NCBI GenBank assembly: GCA_027604505.1
Contig: JADIIX010000056.1
Coordinates: forward strand, 121,104-141,103
Length of the DNA: 20,000 bases
Direction of reading: 5' to 3'
DNA from: Gonapodya sp. JEL0774
Lineage: Eukaryota
The position numbers were made by a program, and so were the translations under genes. How positions within the stretch are numbered: position 1 is the first letter of the stretch; each line of letters starts with the position of its first letter. The notes below the pieces were generated by a model that was given only the letters and a program-made list of their open reading frames with translations, was not told where the DNA came from and searched no databases. This document shows positions 1-19,022 of this stretch, in pieces.

Positions 1-981
1 CCGTCCTCCATACTCTGCACTCATCTGATAGAATCCAGTTCTTTGGCATGTGGTGAGGTTGATGAATTTAAATGAGGGAAGGTGGTGCATGAAACGTCGG
101 AAAAGATGAGTTTCAGGGAGAGCATCTTGCATGTGAGAATCGCGGGGATCAAAGGACCGCTCCTCGTATTTGTCTCGCGGGGGATAGTAGATGGAAGGGA
201 GATCTTACGCGCTTTCATTTTCGCTGGTGAAAGTGACTTTGTTTTGTTCCATCCTGGTGGCCTGTGTGGGCAGTCCATTTGTTCGTGCCAAGCATTTCTG
301 CATTTCCTGACGCAGAGGGTTGCTCCCAAAAGTTGTCGTTGACGTCGCACCTGAACTATTTGATGAAATATTGTACCCATAATCCACAGAGTGTAAAAGA
401 GGAAAGATTGCGTTACAAAACTGTAATCTGAGGGCAACGATCGGCGCGTGGGGCAATGATCAGTATTAGATTGTTCCATAGACTCGCTGATGAACATCCC
501 CTTCAAATCTAAGCGAGTGGCTGGGCTGGACGAATTGATGCCACACGCTATTGCTGGTCGGTACATATGCTCAGGCGAATGGATGGGTCTTGTGCCGTTG
601 ACCCAGACTGATGATCAAGCAATTCATTATTGTAGGCATAGTGTTTGTAGTACAGTATTTATCCATGCATTTGCAATGCCAACTTGGAGATATGGAAAAA
701 AATAGGTGGTAAAAAAGTCACAACAAAAAAAAAAAAGGCAAACAAGCCAGAAATGGAAATGTTCAGCCCTTTAGCCGCAGTGGACCCGATTCCTTCCAGT
801 TCACTCACACACCAGAAAGCCCCGCGAGTCCTACTTTCTGCTCGACGTCTCAGTTTCGCGAAATCCTCCGGGAAATCGCTCAGGGTGTCAAGAATACCGC
901 CTTCCCTCCCGATTGCCTGGTGCTCCCGACGTTGTCCCTCACAACAACTTTTTATCGGAACAGCCAACCACCAGTCTACAG

Positions 982-3459
982 ATGGCAATGACAATGCACA
1001 GAACGAGACGGCGACGAGAAACCAGCGTTTCAGCGCTCACTTGGACCCTGGCTGCACTGTTGGTGTGCGCCTTGATGACTACTCTTGCACACGCCAGATG
1101 TGAATGCGGGTACATTGACGACCTGGGCCGCCTCTGGACAGACGCAATCGTCTACCCTTCCTTCCGGAACACTACTTTCAACACCGCCAAGTCTGACCTG
1201 CGCATTACCGTCAATCAGTTACCGAATGACTCAGGGGTCGCCGGGGTCCCCGCGCCTTACCAGATTCAGAACGACCGAGACAACGTCATGATCAGTGGCG
1301 ACGAGCTCTGGATTCGGGTCAAAGCTGGAGTTCTTCCCGGCGGTGTTTATGTCAGCGGCGGCGAAGTTGTCACGATGAGAACCGATATCCTGTATGGGAC
1401 CTTCCGCTCCAACATCCAGATTACTCCCAATAACGGCACATGCTCTGGCTTCTTCTATTATGGAGACGTGAATAACGAGATCGATATTGAGATTCTTTCA
1501 ACCCAGATCCCAGACCAGAAAGTCAACTTTGTGCAGGTATGTCCTCCGTTTATGTGGCTAAAGTCAACCGATATGCACACTTCCACGGTCCCTGAAACAT
1601 TCTCATATTTTTCTATCGACCCTCTGGCTCCCGCTTACTCGTGGTACTCGTCACTGGGCGTTGCTCTGTACCGTGCCCATATCCTCTGACCGCCACAACC
1701 ACTTTCAATCCCGACCTCCACATCTGTCCAACAACAACTTTCACACCAAAGCACAAAATGAACCTTATCCCCGGCACCACAAATCCATCTCCAGAATCTC
1801 TCCAGAATATTGCTGTTGGCGTCGATCCCTCTGCCGACTTCAACGAGTATCGCATCGACTGGACACCACCTGCTTCCGACTTTTTCGTCAACAGTGCGAA
1901 GCAAACGACACTTACTGCAAACGAGCCCACCCTTGCAGGAAGTGTCATATTCAATCACTGGTCCAAAGGTCTGGTGAGTGCTCAGTCGAAGCAAACGGAT
2001 ACACTAGGATGCCAGGGCTTTTTCGCCTGAGAATGAGACAGCAGGGGAAATCACTATCTATGGCGAGAGGAGTGTTTCCATTCAATGCAGCGACTCAACT
2101 AATGCCCTCCCCGTTCATCCAGGCTGGTTGGGACCAAGGCCCACCAACCAACGACTCCTACCTTAGGATCCGCTCCTTCAAGTTCTTTTTCAACACTACA
2201 GACAGCACGGGCTTTGTTCGCCGATGCAATGCGTCCATGAACGCCAAAGTTCCCCTTGCCACAAGCCGATGCAGCACAGAGAACATCATTGGTAACGTGA
2301 CGGTCACCACCGACGCCGCAGGCATAGAATTCGCAACTGTTGCGTCGTCCAATTTGGCCTCCAGTCAATGTAAGTCAAAGAAACTCTGAATTGATGAACA
2401 ACGACCTCTCGATATGGAGTTGATATGCCCCATTTCGTCATCGTCACGCGACCCTGCCGTACTCCACATTCAGTTATCGCCAACTGGGCGCTGTATGGAA
2501 TGGCCATCGGGTGCGGTGCCATTGCGATCATGGCTTTGGCAACTTTCCCTATACGCTACGTTCGCGCCAAACAGTACGAAAAGGCCCTGAATGAGTATCG
2601 GGAAATCAATGACGAGGATGGATACGACGCGCGCTCTGGATCCTCTGGTGGTACTCTCGAAATGGGAAAATATGGGAACAAGAGGTACAATGGTCCCAGA
2701 GGTTGGAAATGGGGCTTTACGGAGCCGCCGAACTTCACCACCCCTCTTATCGGTAAAAACTCCAAGACTCAACAAGGCGACATTGATCGAGGCAATAAGC
2801 CCCCACGTAAACCGAATAAGACGTATGCGGGTCCAGGTGGGGACAGGGGCGACCCACGCTGGCAGGGACCGCCGCCTGATGGGATGATGCCCCCAGCTCC
2901 CGATTACGACTACCACGACCCTGCAGATGATTCTGACGCCACTTGGGCAGGTAGCAGTCCTGGACAACGTGGCCGCCACGGCAGCGCCGATGCCGAGTCA
3001 GACAGGAGGAGCCGCAAGTCCGTAAACGGCGGACGCGGTGATGGACGGGATCAACGTGACCGCGCTCGTTCGCGTGACCGGGGTGATCGTGGAGACCGAG
3101 GAGATGGTGGAGACTATGCGCAGCCCTCACAGAACAGGAGGTCGGAATCTTCCCATCGGCCTCAGTATCCCGCCCAAGCTCCTCAGTCCATGGCTGCTCC
3201 ATACGCCCAGTCACAGCGACGGCCATCGGAGCCTGCTTATCAGCAATCACAAGGGCAGTACCGTCAGGCACCCCCCACGGTCTCAAACGTTCAACCCCGG
3301 TGGGCGAGTGGAACGCGTCCTCCCATGCCGAATTCGATGGATGTGCAGGGACCACCGCCTTCCGACACGGAGGAGGACATTCCCCCGCCCAGACAACCAA
3401 GCCAGCCCAGGTATAGCAACAACGGAGGCGGGAATGGGGGGCAGGGAAGGAGGAGGTAG
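982..3459 (+). CDS. GH16 family glycoside hydrolase (beta-glucanase/transglycosylase-like), type I membrane protein, 4 exons, ~669 aa
   Basis: Model join(982..1536,1752..1973,2123..2369,2474..3459) keeps frame, with GTATGT/GTGAGT/GTAAGT donors. It has a hydrophobic signal peptide followed by CECGY, the GH16 catalytic motif EIDIE, and typical segments YGTFRS, DFNEYRIDW and NHWSKGL/AGWDQGPP. A TM segment (IANWALYGMAIGCGAIAIMALATFPI) precedes a low-complexity tail. The start ATG is uncertain (several are clustered). Confidence 0.88.
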
Positions 3460-4028
3460 AGAACGGAGAGAGGCGGGCTTCATGGTGGCAGGGTTGCTGA
3501 AGAACTCGTGAGAATTGAGAGGGGGCCTTTTCTGCTACACGCTCTGTGTTCTGGACACACAGCACGTGCTCGACCTGGCCTGGCGCTGGTCAAAGGCTGG
3601 TATCGGCTGCGCATGGATCAATCAGGACCACAATCTCCTTCCCTGGGGAGTCTGCTATCCAGCAGGACTTTCCCTTCATATTTCCCTATCCTTCTACGTA
3701 TGTTACAGAACTTGTTTGGTATGTTCATGCATCATGCAGTCGGGAGAAAGCTTCGGAGGAATCTAGAATTGTTATTTATACCCTCAATTGGATAGCGCAT
3801 TGTCTGACACAATGCAGGTTGCAATACACTGCTGTTGATGTATAGCCCTCGAGGAATATCGCATCTAGACTGTCTAAGTGCCTTTTATTTCCTAATGAAA
3901 AAGTGCTGTGACAATGTGGAGAAGCAAGGAAAAGGATTTGGCGAGGGGGAGTTCGAAATTTTGGAGGGAGTTGCGGCGCAAGCCCACCCTGTCTTTGATT
4001 TGAGAGACAATCACTTACATCACACCTG

Positions 4029-6191: not shown

Positions 6192-8995
6192 TTATGTACT
6201 CTTCTGACTAAGTGCGAAGGATTTGAGAGGGTCGGATCGTCGCTTTTGAGCCTAGTGGGATGACAAGGACAGTTCGAGGTGCCTGCCCGTCCCGCTCTTA
6301 GTGCAATTCCTTACCTTGCTTAAAGTAGCCCTGCCCCTGTTAGAAGCTCTGTCTCTCCCCCTTCCCTTTTCTGTGCCACCAGTCCGTTCACCCTCACCAA
6401 CCGTCACTGCACTCTTTTTCGGTGCCAAGTAACTGGGCACGTGCTTAAGATGTGATTGCACTCTTGCAGGGTGGAGGGGTCGATCAGACCGAAGCGCACG
6501 AAGATCGTTGGGGTTCGACGAAAAATGAGCCTTGGCGAAGTTGAGAGATTTTGAAAGTTTGTCCGAGAGAAACGAGAGAACGAGCACGTCAGATTGTTTG
6601 AAGAAATGAACTGAGACCTCCGTCCGCTTGTGGCACCCCTCAGCGTGGAATGATTTGATTAGCTTTACGGTTTGTGTCTCCATCCCCGAATATGCGGGTG
6701 CAGCGCAAGAATGACGTTGTCCAATCATCACCAGGGTACAAACTTGGACATTTCCCCAAATCAAACGAAATCGACGTTGAACGCACCTTCAACCTCTCGC
6801 TCTCTAACATCTCCCTCCTCACTTCCCTCACCCGCGCCTCCCTCACCGCTGCCTTTGTCACTGCCCGAACTGCATCAGCCACCCTGTATCTGAAGCCATC
6901 AACCGCTTCCTTATCCACAACGAGATCTGCGACCGTTCCACGTGCCTGGACCTTTGGAAATAATTTAATTCGGTCGACTAGCGCTCGTTCCGACACGGAA
7001 CCATCGTGGTCGATCAAAGATGCCGGGTTGGGTTCTGCCCAAAGAGATATAGCGACGCCCTGGCGGGACAAACCTCTCGCCGTCCGGCCGATTCGGTGGA
7101 GATACTGAGATGGTGATGAAGGTAGGTCGAAATTGATAACGGCATCGAGGCGGCGAAAATCGAGTCCTCGAGAAGGGTGGAAGGTGGCAGATGCAGAATT
7201 TCCGGTCTTGGGGCGCTTCGACTTTATTACAACACTGGTGGAAGCCGGTGCGTGGCGCTTACGGGTCTTGGTTGCAACAGAGGAGGACGATGGAGCCTCG
7301 ACTTCATCCGTCCGTTCCGATTCCTTTGAATCATCAGCGGCATCCTCGTCTGTCATCTCGTCGTCCTCTATTTCTGCAGAATCGCTCGCCAGAACGACTC
7401 CGTACATGCCCTGGCCAACGCCCTCAATGACCCTCACTCTACTCTCCACTGGCAAGCCCTCGTCGACGACAGCTGCTCGAATGCCAAATTGCTCTAGAAA
7501 CAGGCGTACACGATAGCAGCGCGGGGGATCACGGCAGAATATAAGAATACGGGAGGTAGATGTCAGAGGTGAGGGCCGCAATGTCAGAAGATAGTGGAGT
7601 AGGTGGAACTTTGAGGCATCTGTGGGGCAGCTGCGTAGGGAAAGGGTTCTCGCTAAAGTAAACGACCCGGCCAAACAGAGAAGATGAGAAAGTGGCAAAC
7701 GGCTCACCTTGCAAAGTGCTGCGAAATTTTACCGGTCCCAGGTACAAGTTCTTTGATTTCTTCGCCGACTTGTACAGTCCCACCCAGTCCGTCCTCATCT
7801 CCCTGAACCGTTACAACGGCCGCACCTTTACCGAATTCTGCAATCCAGTCGCTTTCTCGATCACGTTGCTCCCTTGCGCCAGTTCCAGAAACCGCAGTTG
7901 CCGACACCAGCCACCTTTGCACACCTCCCCCTCCAGCGCCAGCTGCAATAGCCTTTCGAACATCATCGGCGTAGCCAAAATTAGACAAGAGGTCGCATTC
8001 ATCAAGGACCAGGGAGTGAAAGTGTGAAGGATCGAAAAGCAAGCGAGAGGGAAGATCGGAGTGTTTAGATGGAAGGGCGTCGAGGGAGGAGAGGAGGAGG
8101 GACAACCGGGAGGGAGTAGAGATAAGAATGTCGGTCGCGGGGTGGGGCGGGAGAAAGAGAGAGCTTGGTTCCGCAGCATTGGATGGCAGAGGTGGGAGTA
8201 GCTCGTGTCAGAATAGTGGTCTTTGTTACGTTTGAGGTAAAAATCATCACAATATATGACCTCCTTCGCATGAGATGTAAAACGAACGTTCAAGGTCCTT
8301 TTGACTCAATAATGCTTGCGCCCCACATCAAACAACGTAGGGGTCGTTTGCGCACCCACCTTGGCTCGACGCCTTTGTTCACTTCCAGCTCCTTGACTAA
8401 ATTGACGATCCTTATTTGCGATTTGCAATATTGGGAGAAATCGACGGCTGCTTTGAGGACCTGGGCTGCCAGCTCTTTAGTAGGCACGAGGATGAGTGCA
8501 CGGATTGCGTCAAGCTAAATTCATGGTAAAAACGGGGGGAGACGAAATGAAAGGTGATTAACACATTTGAGGGAAGTACAATCGGCTCGTATCGTGACCA
8601 CTCATTGCAGATACCTTTACACTCCCATTGGTATCAACATCCCCCTTTGAATCAACGGCTACATTGCCAGACTTCTCCGCCAAAATTTTACTGATGATTG
8701 GCAAGAGGTATGCGGCAGTTTTCCCTGATCCTGTTCGTGCGTTGGCCACTATATCTCTTCCCTGAACCATCGCTAGAGGAATCGCCAATGACTGGATAGG
8801 CGAGGGCACGCGGAATCCCAGTCGCACGAGAGCACGCTGCAGGCGGGCATCGAGAGGCATGGAGGCAAAAGAAACGGCTGGCGCTGCGTTGGCGGTTGTT
8901 ATGGCGGTTCCGTCCGTCAAGACGTCGTCAGTGGAGTTGTCTTGGACTTCTCCTGGTAAAGGAGGCGGACTGGAAGGGGGATTGGGAGCTCGCAT
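6192..8995 (-). CDS. DBP9: ATP-dependent RNA helicase Dbp9/DDX56 (60S biogenesis), 6 exons, ~703 aa
   Basis: Model complement(join(6192..6251,6315..6530,6787..7630,7708..8163,8360..8514,8615..8995)) = 2112 nt, in frame. Helicase motifs: Q motif (GFRVPSPIQ), ARTGSGKT, VPTKEL, STPSR, DECD, SAT, SRGLDF, YLHRIGRTAR. Dbp9-type C-terminal signatures: FRYRVADAVRAVT, HFSSNPNDLRALRSDRPLHPARVQSHLKHVPSYL, DPLKSF. Confidence 0.93.
6633..6739 (-). ncRNA. Intronic box C/D guide RNA (snoRNA/scaRNA-like), predicted U6 snRNA 2'-O-methylation guide
   Basis: Lies in DBP9 intron 4 on the host strand. Terminal stem GUACCCU/GGGGUGC, box C GUGAUGA (6731-6725), box D CUGA (6643-6640), D'-like CUGC (6703-6700) and C'-like AUGGAGA (6683-6677) bridged by a CCCG/CGGG hairpin. 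The 12-nt guide GUCAUUCUUGCG is complementary to the U6 segment CGCAAGGAUGAC (human sequence) with one G-U pair. Confidence 0.8.
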
Positions 8996-9775
8996 TTTAT
9001 TGCAAATTTCTTGATGCTGCACTTGGACAATTCAGATGGAATTGGACTGGTTTTTTCTTTCGGACGATCGAGGTTGCGCGTGCAGGGTACGGTTACATGC
9101 CGTTGCCTCCCCCCCTTCTTGAAGAACTGACATGTATGCAACCACTATCCACCGAGCACGAGACGTCCGTGTTGCTCGGGCACAAGGAAGTAAAATTTGT
9201 GTCCCTCGCTAAGACGTGCCGTGTTCTCACTTCATTCTGTGCTTTCGTGTTTAGTCTTGTCGTTCAAAGCAATGCATCGCATTCTATATAGTACATCTCT
9301 ATGCTTTTTTCGTCGTTGGTAGGGCCATCCAGGGGACAGAACTTGGAAACAACAAGGAAAGGGGGAATGCATTCAAACACAGTAGTTTGTCACGATCTAG
9401 CAGCAAACGTTGAGGGCAAACTAAGCTCCCATCACTCCTCGATGAAGAACGGTGCTGCGACTGGTGCGAAGGTCACATCGTCTTTTGTTCTTCGCCTGAA
9501 ATTAATGGAGTGTTCCAGAAAAGAGCCTGAGTGAGCTACGAAGTAGGAACTTAACTTTTGAACGTAATAGACGCTTTAGAGCTCCTGCTTTCTTACCCGC
9601 TCGGATACTTTGCTCTGATAATCGACATGCTGTAGTCAGCAGAAGTTTAAGATGCCAAATATTATTGCTGTTCCCCAATCCCCAATTCAAATATTAGAAA
9701 TTCTAGTTCAAACAAAGAATGGACATTAGATCAATGGCTGTGGACTCATTGCCCCGGAGCAGATCCCCCATCGTT

Positions 9776-14693: not shown

Positions 14694-15173
14694 GCTTGTG
14701 CGATTATAGTTGAATCGCGTGTTCCGAATCTTGGGCTTTTCGGCTCGAATGGTCCGCCTGGCCGGTGCCAATGAAAATGCCCGATCAGCGACCCACACTC
14801 GTCATCCCTCAAGATAATTCCATCGCCTCGCACCGATTCATTTGATGTAATCTGCAGAAGAATAACTTCACGCGACAACTGGAATGAGCGAGCCAGGACT
14901 GCGAGGACTCGCGGACGGACCACTCGAGTCTTTAACCCCTTCCTCCCCGGGCACCGCAATGTTTCGATCAAATATGTGCATTCTCCAATTCCCACCCACA
15001 CATTCACAATCTAAACAACTACCAACATAGTCCAGGGCCCCCACACCGGCCAGCCCCTCGCTACGCTCCAGTCATGCGCACTCCACACCGTGGACCAAGT
15101 TCTTCCCGCCTCTGAGTCCACGCAAAGAGCACACCTCCACAGCCATGTCGACGGCAGGCGGTGCCAGGTGGAT

Positions 15174-18100
15174 CTAGGCTGACGCCTTGGTGAGCGCGGC
15201 CTTGTCGAGGGCGGCCTTGCGGGCAGCCATCTTGGCAACGCCTAGCGGGGGGGTGGGTGGAGGTAGAGTGGAGAGGGCGAGCAGTGGCATCACGTGCAAA
15301 GGGGGGATGATGCGTGGGGTAGAGCAAGAAGGAACAACAATGAGTCGCACGCTCGGCACACCGAGGGACAAGGGAGACAACAAGCTCATCCTACGCACTC
15401 TTGATCCCCATGATACCTCCACCCCAGGTCCTCCTGATCTCGGTGTTATCGTTGAAGTTGGCCTTGAAGGCCGACACGAGGTCCGCGAGCTCCTTCTTGT
15501 CCTAAAGACCCAAGGTAAAGAGCGACAAAATAAACAAATAAATCAATACGAAAAAAAGGGCACCCGATGAACACGCTCGCGTCGCAAAACGACCACCGCA
15601 AGCAAACGTCACTCGAAAACTCACCTCAGGCTTCACCTCGGTAACGGCCAACGCCGTGGCGGTCTTCTTGTGGACGACGGCTCCGAGGCGGGCCTTGCCC
15701 TTGACAATGGCGTACGGGACACCCATCTTGCGGCAGAGGGCCGGCAACCAGAGGACGAGCTAAAATAAATAAAAAAAAAGCAAAAGAAAAAGAAGAAGAA
15801 AAAGGGCCGAGGGAGACAAAGAGCATGAGAATAATTCGTCGGAGGTAGAGAGGGGTGGGAAGGGGAAAGGCCACGCCGCGATTTTTCTCAAAAAAAAAAC
15901 CAACAAAACAAGTCCGTTCTAGGGCGCGGAATGCGGGTACACAGACAACCGACCGCGCCAACGTCCCGGCTCCACGGAGCCCAAGTGCGGGGGAAAACAA
16001 GTGTGTGTTGTTGTTACACAGACACACACTTTCTCGCAAGACACCCTTTTGTTGTATGCCCCCCGCGTTTGCGTGCGCATGTACCAACAGTCTGCGCCGG
16101 TCCGGATGACCGCGTCCCCCCGGACCCATCCCATCCCACAGGATGGGCGGCCAAAAAGGAAACCGAACAGACGTGGATAACCGCGGGCAACAAAAGTTGT
16201 TTTCCCCCCGTGACCGCGCCCCAATGTCGCCTCGCCGGTCGGTGTACGCCACTGACTCGCAGGCCCGATTCCGAGCCCGCCGACCCCCCTTGTGGGGGGG
16301 GGGAAGGAAGCGAGGAAAAGGCGCACTACGACGGACCATCACGACACGGCAAGGGCGGCACCTCCACACACAAAACACCAAAGAACGACCACACCATAGA
16401 GCCATACCGTGTCCGGGATCCCGGGGTTAATCACTCGCACGACACCTTCGTAGCCCCCGGGCTACGCGGGCCGGGGAGGACAAGAGCCCGGCGGACCACG
16501 AGGCGCGTGGCGGGACGGTGGGTGATGCACGCGGGGAACAGGCGGGCCAACGACACGCACAAAACCGAATCCACCAGATAAAAAAGGAAAAACACCAAAC
16601 CACGTCCCCAAACACATCCTTCCACCCCATACATACTCCCCGCCCTCTCGTCGTCACCGGTGCTGCGTAACTCGCTGGCCGGCGACTAGGGCGGGGGTGG
16701 TCTCGACAATTTGTATGGGGGTGTGAGATGAGATGGGACGGGCGGGTTTCCCCCCCCTGGGGACACCGTGCGGTGCATAGGACGGGTCATTGAACGTCGC
16801 GGGGGCATGAGCTGGAGAGAGTGTGGTGTGTGGTGTGTTGGTGTGTTGGTGTGTTCGTGTGTGTCGCGTGCTTGCTGTGGTCTGGTCGTGTGTGTACGAA
16901 TGTGCATTGTTGTGCGGTGGAACGGACGAGAAAACAGAGTGGCCGATATTGTGCGCGTTGCGTTGGCGAGGCGCACGCGCACACGAGAGAGAGAAAAAAA
17001 AGGCGGCGGGGGCGCTCGCGGCGCGGCCAGGCAAAAAACGGCTTTCCCCCCTTCCCCGACCAACGAGGTCACATGAGTTACCCACCTCGATAGGGTCCAC
17101 ATCATCCGCAATCACGACAAACGCCGCCTTCTTGTTCTCCACGAGAGCCGTAATGTGGTTGATGCCGTACTTGACGACGAGGGGTTTCTTGCCCGCGTCG
17201 GGCTTGGCGCCGGCCGCGGTGGCCGTGGCGGCGGCAGTCAGACGGACCTTCTTGTCGGCCTTGGACTCGGGACGGTACTTGACCAGGAGCTTGAAGAGTT
17301 GGGTAGCTGGGGGGGGGGGGAAGGGGGGCGGGGGAAGGGGAAGGTAGGTTGGCGTTGTACATACAGGGGTGCAGAGAGTGTGTGAGAACGAGACGGGGGA
17401 GACAAGACAACACATCATCGGTCCGCCAGGGCACCATGAAAAAACCAAATGGGGTCAATATATGGACCACTCTCTCTCCCGATCCCACCGTGGGATGAAA
17501 ACCCAAATGGGTCAATTTGTCCGTATAGGGCACCTCCGTTCCGTTGCGCTTCCGTTCACTCCAGGCCCAGGTCGGGGCCGCCTCGGCCTCCGGCTATTAC
17601 CCACCAGTGTTCTTATCCAACGTCTTTGTAAACTGGTTGATGGCCGGAGGCACCTTGAGCCTCTTTTGGAGGATGGCCTTTTGCCTCTGGAGGCGGATGT
17701 ATTCGGGCCACTTGACGAAGCGGGTGAGGTCGCGGGTGGGTTGGATGGCTTGGCCTGGGTTGGGGAGTCGGTGTGTGTGTGTGGGAGGGGGGTAAGGAGG
17801 GGGCGGGGGGGTAAGGAGGGGTGTGTGTGAGAGAGGGAATGGGGGGACTCTGCCATGGACTCTGCCATGGACCGATCAATAGACTTCCATTGGTCCATAT
17901 GGGCTTCACCGCCCATATGCCTATATGGACCGCGAGGAGTCACTCGCCTCCGGCGGACTATGCCCCTCGCTGACGCTTTCGCTCACCTCCGGCCGGCGAG
18001 GAATCAATCGCCACCGGCGGACTACCTCCCTTCGGTCGGGCGAGGCGCTCGCTGACGCTTGGGCTCCACAGTACTCACCGATTCCAAAGTTCCTTGGAGC

Positions 18101-18530
18101 CTTCTCAATGAGAGGGTTCTTTGGTGCCTTTGCGGTCTTGCCCTTGATGGGGTAAGGGGCGGGAGCGACCTTCTTTCCTTTGGGAGCCTTGGGCTGGGGT
18201 TGGTGGGTTGGGTAGGTGGGGTGTGTAGGTGTGTGGGGGGGAGAGAAGGGGAAGGAAGGAGGGGGGGTTGGGTGGTGGGGGAGAGGAAGGGGATGGAAAG
18301 GGGGGAGAAGGCGGGGCAGGGGAGGGATGGGNNNNNNNNNNCCCCCCGGGGCGCGCCGCCGGGCCCGGGGCGGGAGGGGCATGGGAATGGGGATGGGAAT
18401 GGGAATGGGGGGGTCAGGTCAAACCAGCACCCCCAACCACGTCCATCGACCGATTCCCATGGCGCCCACGTGACTCCTGCTCCAGAATTCCGCTCTTTGT
18501 GGTCTGTGTGTCTGCTGCGACGCTTACCAT
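15174..18530 (-). CDS. RPL8: 60S ribosomal protein eL8 (L7a / yeast L8), 7 exons, 264 aa
   Basis: Model complement(join(15174..15241,15399..15501,15625..15759,17086..17306,17605..17754,18079..18193,18528..18530)) = 795 nt. Conserved peptides: [114 protein letters not shown]. The first coding exon is ATG alone. Confidence 0.97.
16625..16720 (-). promoter_or_regulatory. Three-helix RNA hairpin overlapping the cassette stop codon and 5' splice site
   Basis: Nested pairings on the transcribed strand: CCCCAUACA/UGUAUGGGG (9 bp), CCCCGCCCU/AGGGCGGGG (9 bp), GUCGCCGG/CCGGUGAC (8 bp, one G-U). Confidence 0.7.
16637..16811 (-). other. Candidate poison (PTC-containing) cassette exon within RPL8 intron 4
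   Basis: Acceptor ...cacactctctccAG|CTC at 16812/16811, preceded by a C/A-rich tract like those before the intron 1 and intron 2 acceptors. In-frame TAG at 16688-16686. Consensus donor GTATGT at 16636. Length 175 nt (frameshifting). Confidence 0.6.
17436..17545. repeat. Duplicated ~24-nt module around a hairpin in RPL8 intron 3
   Basis: atgaaaaaaccaaatggggtcaat (~17436) and atgaaaacccaaatgggtcaat (~17495), with the atcccac-c-gtgggat palindrome between them. Both are flanked by gtccg..agggcacc. Confidence 0.7.
17846..18060. repeat. GC-rich direct repeats and palindromes in RPL8 intron 2
   Basis: Two copies of gcgagga.tca.tcgcc.ccggcggacta...ctcgctgacgctt (~17932-17978 and ~17996-18060), a tandem gactctgccatg x2, and the hairpin catatgggc-ttcacc-gcccatatg. 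Confidence 0.75.
18332..18341. other. Assembly gap (10 N) inside G-rich RPL8 intron 1
   Basis: Run of N flanked by G/C homopolymer tracts. Confidence 0.99.
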
Positions 18531-19022
18531 GGTGTCTTGGTCGAGTGAGTGCCGGGTTGGTTGGGTTGGGGTGGGGCGGGGTCTGTCCGATGGTACGGGG
18601 AATGGTCTGACTATAGTGTGGGCCCCTGCACGCACCACCCACCCAGTATTATTTTGTCTCGGACAGTCGCAGCGAACTCGAGGACCCACTTTCACCGGGA
18701 AAAACCTAATTCATTCGTTGCCCACGTGCACACTCTTAGTACTACAGACACACATCGAGCAACAGGTGGTACCATTATACCAACAATCGCGGCACCTCTC
18801 ATTTGGTTTTTCCGCTTTTTTTTTTGATGAAATTCAATAATATGAACGTACATATGTTCATATGGTGACTGTGGCCGGACCTGTGACCCACCACTCAGAC
18901 TGTTCACGTCTTGGGTTTGCCCCGTTCTTCCACGCACATTTCCCGACCCCACCAACCCCCCCTTCCCCCACTCCCGCCCCCGCCCCACCGCCCCCCGACT
19001 CCGCATTCCCATTCTCCTCCAC
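18531..19022. promoter_or_regulatory. Short divergent promoter/5' UTR region shared by RPL8 (-) and the NMA111-like gene (+)
   Basis: About 490 bp separate the two head-to-head start codons, with an AT-richer core at ~18790-18865. Confidence 0.6.

Follow-up and report, generated by a model that had tools for sequence, protein, structure and literature searches.

Intron 4 of the gene encoding ribosomal protein eL8 in Gonapodya sp. JEL0774, an aquatic monoblepharid fungus, contains a 175-nt stop-bearing cassette, which is tentatively interpreted here, with a probability of roughly 0.45, as a poison exon in an eL8 feedback through splicing and NMD. The cassette would by default be skipped by way of its folded donor, and surplus eL8 would bind a loop next to this donor, leading to inclusion and NMD.

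The gene occupies positions 18530-15174 on the minus strand of the 20-kb window (the whole stretch of DNA analysed) and comprises seven exons with a spliced frame of 264 aa, identical to P0001, which bears the NCBI name 60S ribosomal protein L8B, Gonapodya sp. JEL0774. Full-length homology and the L7Ae domain (PF01248) identify the product as eL8, PDB eL8 chains match it at E 5e-106, and its membership of the L7Ae family, as given by the initial annotation of this DNA, was thereby confirmed. From the spliced frame the following parts were derived:

18530-18528, minus strand: coding exon 1, consisting of the ATG only
18193-18079, minus strand: exon 2
17754-17605, minus strand: exon 3
17306-17086, minus strand: exon 4, with the DPIE codons at its end
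15760-17085, minus strand: intron 4, 1326 nt
15759-15625, minus strand: exon 5
15501-15399, minus strand: exon 6
15241-15174, minus strand: exon 7, up to the stop codon

Introns 1-6 measure 334, 324, 298, 1326, 123 and 157 nt, and this exon/intron model agrees with the earlier statement that intron 4 (1326 nt, versus 123-334 nt in the others) is the only long one. Several smaller features were recorded in the remaining introns. Intron 1 starts directly after the ATG (start-codon intron; 18194-18530, minus strand), as it does in loci L001 and L003, and includes a 10-base N gap at 18331-18340. Two to three units of a direct repeat, rich in G+C and with small stems, are found in intron 2 (17927-18063, minus strand; D4, D15, D16), and together with a palindrome at 17892-17931 (z -3.8) possibly form a small repeat element. 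An 18-nt inverted repeat (I7; 17586-17651, z -2.86) spans the donor of exon 3, so that partial pairing is predicted for the donor of intron 3 too. Further away in the window lie what we take by eye to be a spliced gene for a glycoside-hydrolase-type membrane protein (~980-3460, plus strand), which appears to have a GTATGT donor at 1537, and presumably, again by eye, a DEAD-box helicase gene (6640-9020, minus strand).

The position of intron 4 appears to be common to many eukaryotic eL8 genes and ancient. Among the best 150 exon-4 representatives, 68 continued directly after DPIE with an unrelated tail whose first residue is V, as is expected of read-through into a GT intron, and such V-initial tails in many eL8 genes point to the age of the position; 63 were spliced, 13 were other cases and six were without the DPIE motif. 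Its length is another matter: six metagenome eL8 loci were scanned, of which four, on near-identical contigs, have an intron of ~60 nt at this position and two are intronless there, so that a long intron 4 is not general and no long orthologue was found among these six. Viral and prokaryote scans yielded no eL8 locus (47 stretches were rejected, and none of the ten loci L010-L019 matched eL8), and look-alike DNA windows for the eL8 region were not found either. A cassette-like tail on an exon-4 homologue near to Gonapodya was absent from the 92 and the best 150 matches, and a protein search with the cassette peptide gave one candidate and none at E 10, both being weak negatives. P0194, a distant eL8 fragment, has an unrelated tail after DPIE without the initial V, which might come from the use of another acceptor or exon at this junction, or else from a faulty assembly.

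Within and at the end of intron 4 the following features make up the candidate cassette and its surroundings:

16812-16870, minus strand: candidate internal acceptor, a C/A-rich, G-free tract ending in CAG (G-content scan; repeat families D1, D2, D5)
16811-16637, minus strand: candidate poison cassette exon, 175 nt, with stops in all three frames and without a protein homologue (sequence)
16688-16686, minus strand: in-frame TAG after 41 codons (sequence)
16636-16631, minus strand: candidate cassette donor GTATGT (sequence; opening cost)
16630-16560, minus strand: G/U-rich tract downstream of the donor, containing G runs (composition, folding)
15810-15760, minus strand: U-rich tract of the productive acceptor (base composition)

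The acceptor at 16811, 274 nt into intron 4, the 41 codons followed by TAG, the cassette of 175 nt and the GTATGT at 16636 are all present in the sequence as had been described. The acceptor context at 16811 is more than chance. It contains one G in -50 to -4, and of the 838 YAG sites that the window has on its two strands, four have at most one G and six at most two; the six comprise the genuine acceptors of introns 1-3, the site at 16811 and two adjacent plus-strand sites in the 3' flank (15031, 15036). An acceptor as G-poor as that at 16811 occurred in none of 1000 shuffled introns, which is a lenient null, as shuffling destroys tracts, and a repeat search independently grouped the tract with those of introns 1-3 and of the 5' leader. 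The upstream sub-intron closed by this acceptor would, at 274 nt, be similar to introns 1-3 (298-334 nt). A branch motif of the CTNAY type was not found before 16811, nor before exons 2, 4 and 7. The resemblance of the internal to the real acceptor (AG/CTC), which had been read as mimicry, does exist and carries no weight as evidence, being a match of three bases and not above chance.

The donor calls for similar caution. The GTATGT, 449 nt downstream of 17085, is indeed there, as the initial annotation had it; a donor hexamer of this kind was, however, present in 767 of 1000 shuffled introns, so that the hexamer alone is at chance level. In G/U richness of the following sequence, the site ranks 8th among 114 GTRNGT sites, and the true donors are not especially G/U-rich downstream (0.38-0.71). 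The productive acceptor of intron 4 is the most U-rich of the gene, with 0.82 T as compared with 0.14 T at the cassette acceptor. The TAG lies 49 nt upstream of the cassette donor and 287 nt upstream of the last exon junction; in silico, the alternative path thus places a premature stop far upstream of the last junction, as splicing-NMD demands. Early stops would be encountered on two other paths as well, namely TGA 16656 if the full intron 4 is retained and TAG 16688 if only the acceptor is used. A function of the cassette as coding exon was rejected, as stops occur in all frames and the protein is complete without it, and recursive or nested splicing was rejected by inspection, as neither junction regenerates a splice site.

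The stop and the donor lie in a predicted hairpin, the parts of which were derived from sequence and folding:

16722-16714/16633-16625, minus strand: helix P0, 9 bp, with its 3' side formed by donor positions +4 to +12
16696-16638, minus strand: P1-loop-P2 hairpin
16696-16688/16646-16638, minus strand: helix P1, 9 bp
16686-16679/16660-16653, minus strand: helix P2, 8 bp, with one G-U

The three helices, which had been proposed as a hairpin of 26 bp over stop and donor, add up to this number as read from the sequence (P0 9, P1 9 and P2 8 bp). Pair probabilities are 0.92-1.0 for P2, 0.74-1.0 for P1 and 0.43-0.99 for P0, in which a C run can slip. By the folding model, the hairpin is more than a chance structure: its 107-nt form reached z -4.76 (0/200 shuffles) and the 76-nt core z -2.91 (2/200), and among 61 windows of intron 4 the hairpin window was a clear outlier with z -4.86 as against -2.31 for the next best, although this window, like the thresholds for kink-turns given below, was chosen after the feature had been seen. 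The strongest predicted structure of intron 4 hence sits exactly on the cassette donor and the stop. The argument for the transcribed strand from the G-U pair failed, for the plus strand folds as well (z -4.11, 0/200 shuffles) and the strand, with its single G-U pair, gives no support.

According to folding, the cassette donor would be the hardest of the gene to open, at a cost of 11.8 kcal/mol versus 4.0-8.5 for the six true donors. Forcing it open leaves P1-P2 intact, so that U1 on the donor and a protein on the loop would be compatible. The acceptor tract is predicted to be ~90% open until some 230 nt beyond it have been transcribed and then to become about half paired, its unpaired fraction falling from ~0.9 to 0.52 once the G/U tract is transcribed (long-range pairs allowed). 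Pairing of the G/U tract with the cassette, and with the C/A tract that precedes the acceptor, is predicted to follow from composition and not from specific sequence; specific pairing of the two tracts was rejected, given -38.2 as against -38.0 +/- 3.2 in shuffles. Thirteen bases of exon 4 (17184-17172) are complementary to the region of the bulged loop strand at 16644-16656 (I18), and their pairing as a switch was rejected at a probability of ~1e-26.

Could such a module be neutral sequence, composed of a low-complexity C/A tract chancing on CAG and the inverted-repeat remnant of a small insertion? C/A tracts occur in the 5' leader too, the two plus-strand YAG sites at 15031 and 15036 are no acceptors, the fold is strand-symmetric, and of the four 80-nt windows along the gene with z below -2.5 three lie outside the hairpin. 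However, acceptor, stop, loop and donor coincide as one module in the sole long intron, and a second copy of the hairpin is absent from the 20-kb window; we therefore regard a neutral origin as very unlikely. Long introns of ribosomal protein genes often host snoRNAs, e.g. in vertebrate RPL7A, and intron 4 could owe its length to such a guest, with the hairpin as part of it. The 3' part of the intron does show several stems and ANANNA words, with no clear ACA tail. Against this stand an Rfam search over 15000-18700 without a match to E 1, the absence of box D (CTGA) from intron 4, where a single box-C-like word with a mismatch was seen, so that the pair of boxes C and D of a box C/D snoRNA is not found there, and, by inspection, the lack of an H or ACA box after the cassette hairpin. 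A snoRNA is regarded as extremely unlikely.

Between P1 and P2 lies an asymmetric loop, and a motif scan of the gene returned it together with a second stem:

16652-16647, minus strand: bulged strand of the kink-turn-like loop, with a 3-nt bulge then GA, or a 5-nt bulge then GA
16335-16232, minus strand: second stem with the same layout of UA opposite NNN-GA (z -3.57, 1/200)

The loop at the cassette donor was the best match to a kink-turn-like layout gene-wide. Its bulged strand faces U16688 and A16687 as 2n and 1n, bases which belong to the TAG stop codon. In a first register, an 8-bp C helix is followed by the bulge GAC, by G1b and A2b facing A1n and U2n, by a 2-nt bulge and by an 8-bp NC helix; in a second, a 5-nt bulge goes with a continuous NC helix. 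Further features are G1b.A1n, a C-G closing pair, G at L1, U at 2n and G-C at 3b.3n. A motif of this kind with both stems of 8 bp was found in one of 300 shuffled introns, at post-hoc thresholds.

Standard kink-turns have G at 2n, and U at 2n defines the commonest form of Kt-23 (PMC5061560). The loop shares with the standard simple kink-turn the 3-nt bulge followed by G1b.A1n; the A2b.G2n pair is missing, since 2n is U16688. By sequence it has the Kt-23-type arrangement of G1b.A1n and A2b.U2n between two helices, in two registers with one irregularity each. The natural rRNA site of L7Ae/L8e is Kt-15, described as a complex kink-turn with a bulged U (PMC4005666, PMC3553981) that is read by L8e (PMC3553981); kink-turns bound by SBP2 are reported to have a protruding U as well (PMC1874613). 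The elements of Kt-15 (A2b from the non-bulged strand, a G2n-U-A2b triple and the bulged U) do not occur in the loop, and a Kt-15 pattern built from published descriptions gave five loose rows in the gene and none at the hairpin. A eukaryotic helix-15 sequence for comparison was not found among the loci (L009 is no rRNA, and L007 and L008 break off too soon), and plasmid matches are bacterial. The loop fits a putative non-standard simple kink-turn of the Kt-23 type with U at 2n, set apart from the complex Kt-15 by description. The kink-turn likeness proposed by the initial annotation is thus retained for the Kt-23 layout and dropped for the standard A2b.G2n and the Kt-15 layouts. As to properties of the loop, G-C at 3b.3n is reported to predict kink-turn folding only with protein (PMC4382518), and G at L1 to be read by L7Ae E89 (PMC3884654).

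The second stem (16335-16232), possibly a tandem site of the main loop, is a weaker candidate, since in its fold of lowest energy the GA is paired, within a 2x2 loop; three motif matches of its grade occur on the plus strand of the window. A standard kink-turn-like motif was also noticed near the 5' end of intron 1 (554 nt) in a different eL8 gene (L003:3960-4004, minus strand) and was rejected as support, as 121 of 500 shuffles match too.

The cryptic sites and the hairpin may be real without eL8 binding to them, in which case the structure would silence a cryptic exon, or another protein of the L7Ae family or binders of G runs would regulate it. The folding model offers no two-state fold, the loop is unlike Kt-15, and N139-H140 is invariant in eL8, to which N33-E34 of archaeal L7Ae presumably aligns. 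The glutamate of archaeal L7Ae is described as reading G1b (PMC3884654), and G runs together with hnRNP H1 as driving the rpL3 event (PMC3177206). Given that a loop of such quality is rare in shuffles (1/300) and stands in the gene of an L7Ae-family protein, binding by something other than eL8, or none at all, is decidedly unlikely.

For the poison exon under eL8 feedback, skipping by default is predicted because the donor is folded into the hairpin, and the U-rich distal acceptor would outcompete that of the cassette. In terms of the model, default skipping is well accounted for by the buried donor, the partly buried acceptor tract and the far more U-rich distal acceptor. Surplus eL8 would bind the kink-turn-like loop beside the cassette donor; bound early to P1-P2, it may hinder closure of P0 or help U1 to engage, whereupon splicing would shift to inclusion of the cassette and the product would be destroyed by NMD. 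The folding model does not account for the regulated step, in which eL8 binding would favour inclusion. Forcing the loop open leaves the accessibility of the cassette donor at 0.22 in the folding model, so that no two-state switch is predicted between loop and donor, and a protein that stabilised the hairpin would make the poison donor even less accessible and favour skipping, which is the wrong sign for feedback. The G-poor acceptor, the neighbour-sized sub-intron, the structure on donor and stop, the rare loop and the precedent of worm rpl-7A speak for the feedback; the chance-level hexamer of the donor, the strand-symmetric fold, the lack of a structural switch, the non-standard loop and the short or absent metagenome introns speak against it. 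Of the autoregulatory switch originally proposed, the sites, the stop and the predicted structure at the donor stand, while the sign and the coupling of loop and donor do not support it. NMD factors are reported to be widespread among basal fungi (PMC5709506) and exon skipping to be comparatively rare in fungi (PMC6142364), the latter being a further point against a cassette.

The sign would fit a protein-stabilised structure if eL8 exerted control while the donor was rarely used: eL8 would lock the hairpin, with the outcome of acceptor-only use, in which the last 1052 nt of the intron are kept, or of stalling or retention with the cassette as decoy, as in yeast L30, L22 or human rpL3. By statistics the acceptor 16811 is strong, unlike the donor, and both products carry early stops (TAG 16688 upon acceptor use, TGA 16656 upon full retention). 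Precedents are reported in the cryptic 3' site of human rpL3 (PMC3177206), in Rpl22, where splicing is stalled by stabilising an intron fold (PMC13630204), and in decoy exons that favour retention (PMC6097662), and in almost every eukaryote retention is more frequent than skipping (PMC6142364). However, this alternative gives no account of how a hidden donor would promote the acceptor, the distance of the hairpin is ~360 nt to the true donor and ~870 nt to the true acceptor, and the G/U-rich tract directly after GTATGT resembles the start of an intron. Control of this kind, the main alternative to the feedback by inclusion, is somewhat unlikely.

Earlier work on splicing-NMD of worm rpl-7A is reportedly that of Mitrovich and Anderson from 2000. 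The NMD-targeted isoforms that the initial annotation gave for this C. elegans gene are confirmed, their share shifting with knockdown of the gene itself (PMC4937301). As proposed for Gonapodya, it is an eL8 gene with a stop-bearing unproductive isoform derived from an intron, and its own product feeds back directly or indirectly; in the worm, however, isoform and feedback are demonstrated and the regulated introns are described as highly conserved (PMC4937301), whereas in Gonapodya isoform and feedback are predicted. An RNA element or a splice type for rpl-7A was not found in the accessible part of that source.

Yeast L30 (PMC8047918) and L22 (PMC13630204) are described as binding structures in their own pre-mRNA. 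[quoted passage not shown] In contrast to the Gonapodya hairpin, which covers a cryptic donor situated 449 nt inside intron 4, the L30 structure lies at the authentic donor and blocks splicing, so that a block of the L30 type, with the structure at the authentic 5' splice site, does not apply to Gonapodya; moreover, the Gonapodya loop is non-standard (2n = U), and its stabilisation would hide an unproductive site. Kt-23-type kink-turns share the bulge followed by G.A and the U at 2n (PMC5061560), but Kt-23 is an element of 16S rRNA, and the NC helix in Gonapodya, deduced from its letters, requires either a bulge of 2 nt or a loop of 5 nt. The leader of archaeal L7Ae likewise provides a protein-dependent kink-turn in the transcript of an orthologous family (PMC6298567); there, translation is controlled, the kink-turn is standard and the RNA is reported as unfolded without protein, unlike the predicted pre-formed hairpin of Gonapodya. 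In human rpL3 (PMC3177206) and decoy exons (PMC6097662), a cryptic acceptor or cassette in a long intron leads to non-productive RNA with G runs nearby, as is proposed here, but other genes are concerned and a kink-turn is not described in the accessible parts of both sources. In the open-access literature no report of a fungal eL8 gene with a kink-turn or a poison exon was found, which agrees with the initial annotation knowing of none in this lineage, and an RNA element or direct binding for eL8 splicing feedback was not found described there. By its layout the module would work like a ribosomal-protein splicing-NMD loop, of which it is a candidate member.

It is unlikely that in an early-diverging fungus a eukaryotic eL8 directly recognises a Kt-23-type kink-turn differing from the site it binds on rRNA, with core bases that also serve as the stop codon of a poison exon, and gates this exon co-transcriptionally during a brief interval; if true, this would supply a defined RNA element for the eL8 splicing feedback and would imply a kinetic and not a two-state switch. 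Should the module be neutral or unused, only an ordinary eL8 gene remains. Feedback of eL8 via unproductive splicing is already known in worms; the compact 100-nt element with its named loop makes binding of eL8 to a kink-turn in its own pre-mRNA directly testable. If true, the reading would add an early-diverging fungus to the range of poison-exon control, within a kingdom in which exons are not commonly skipped.
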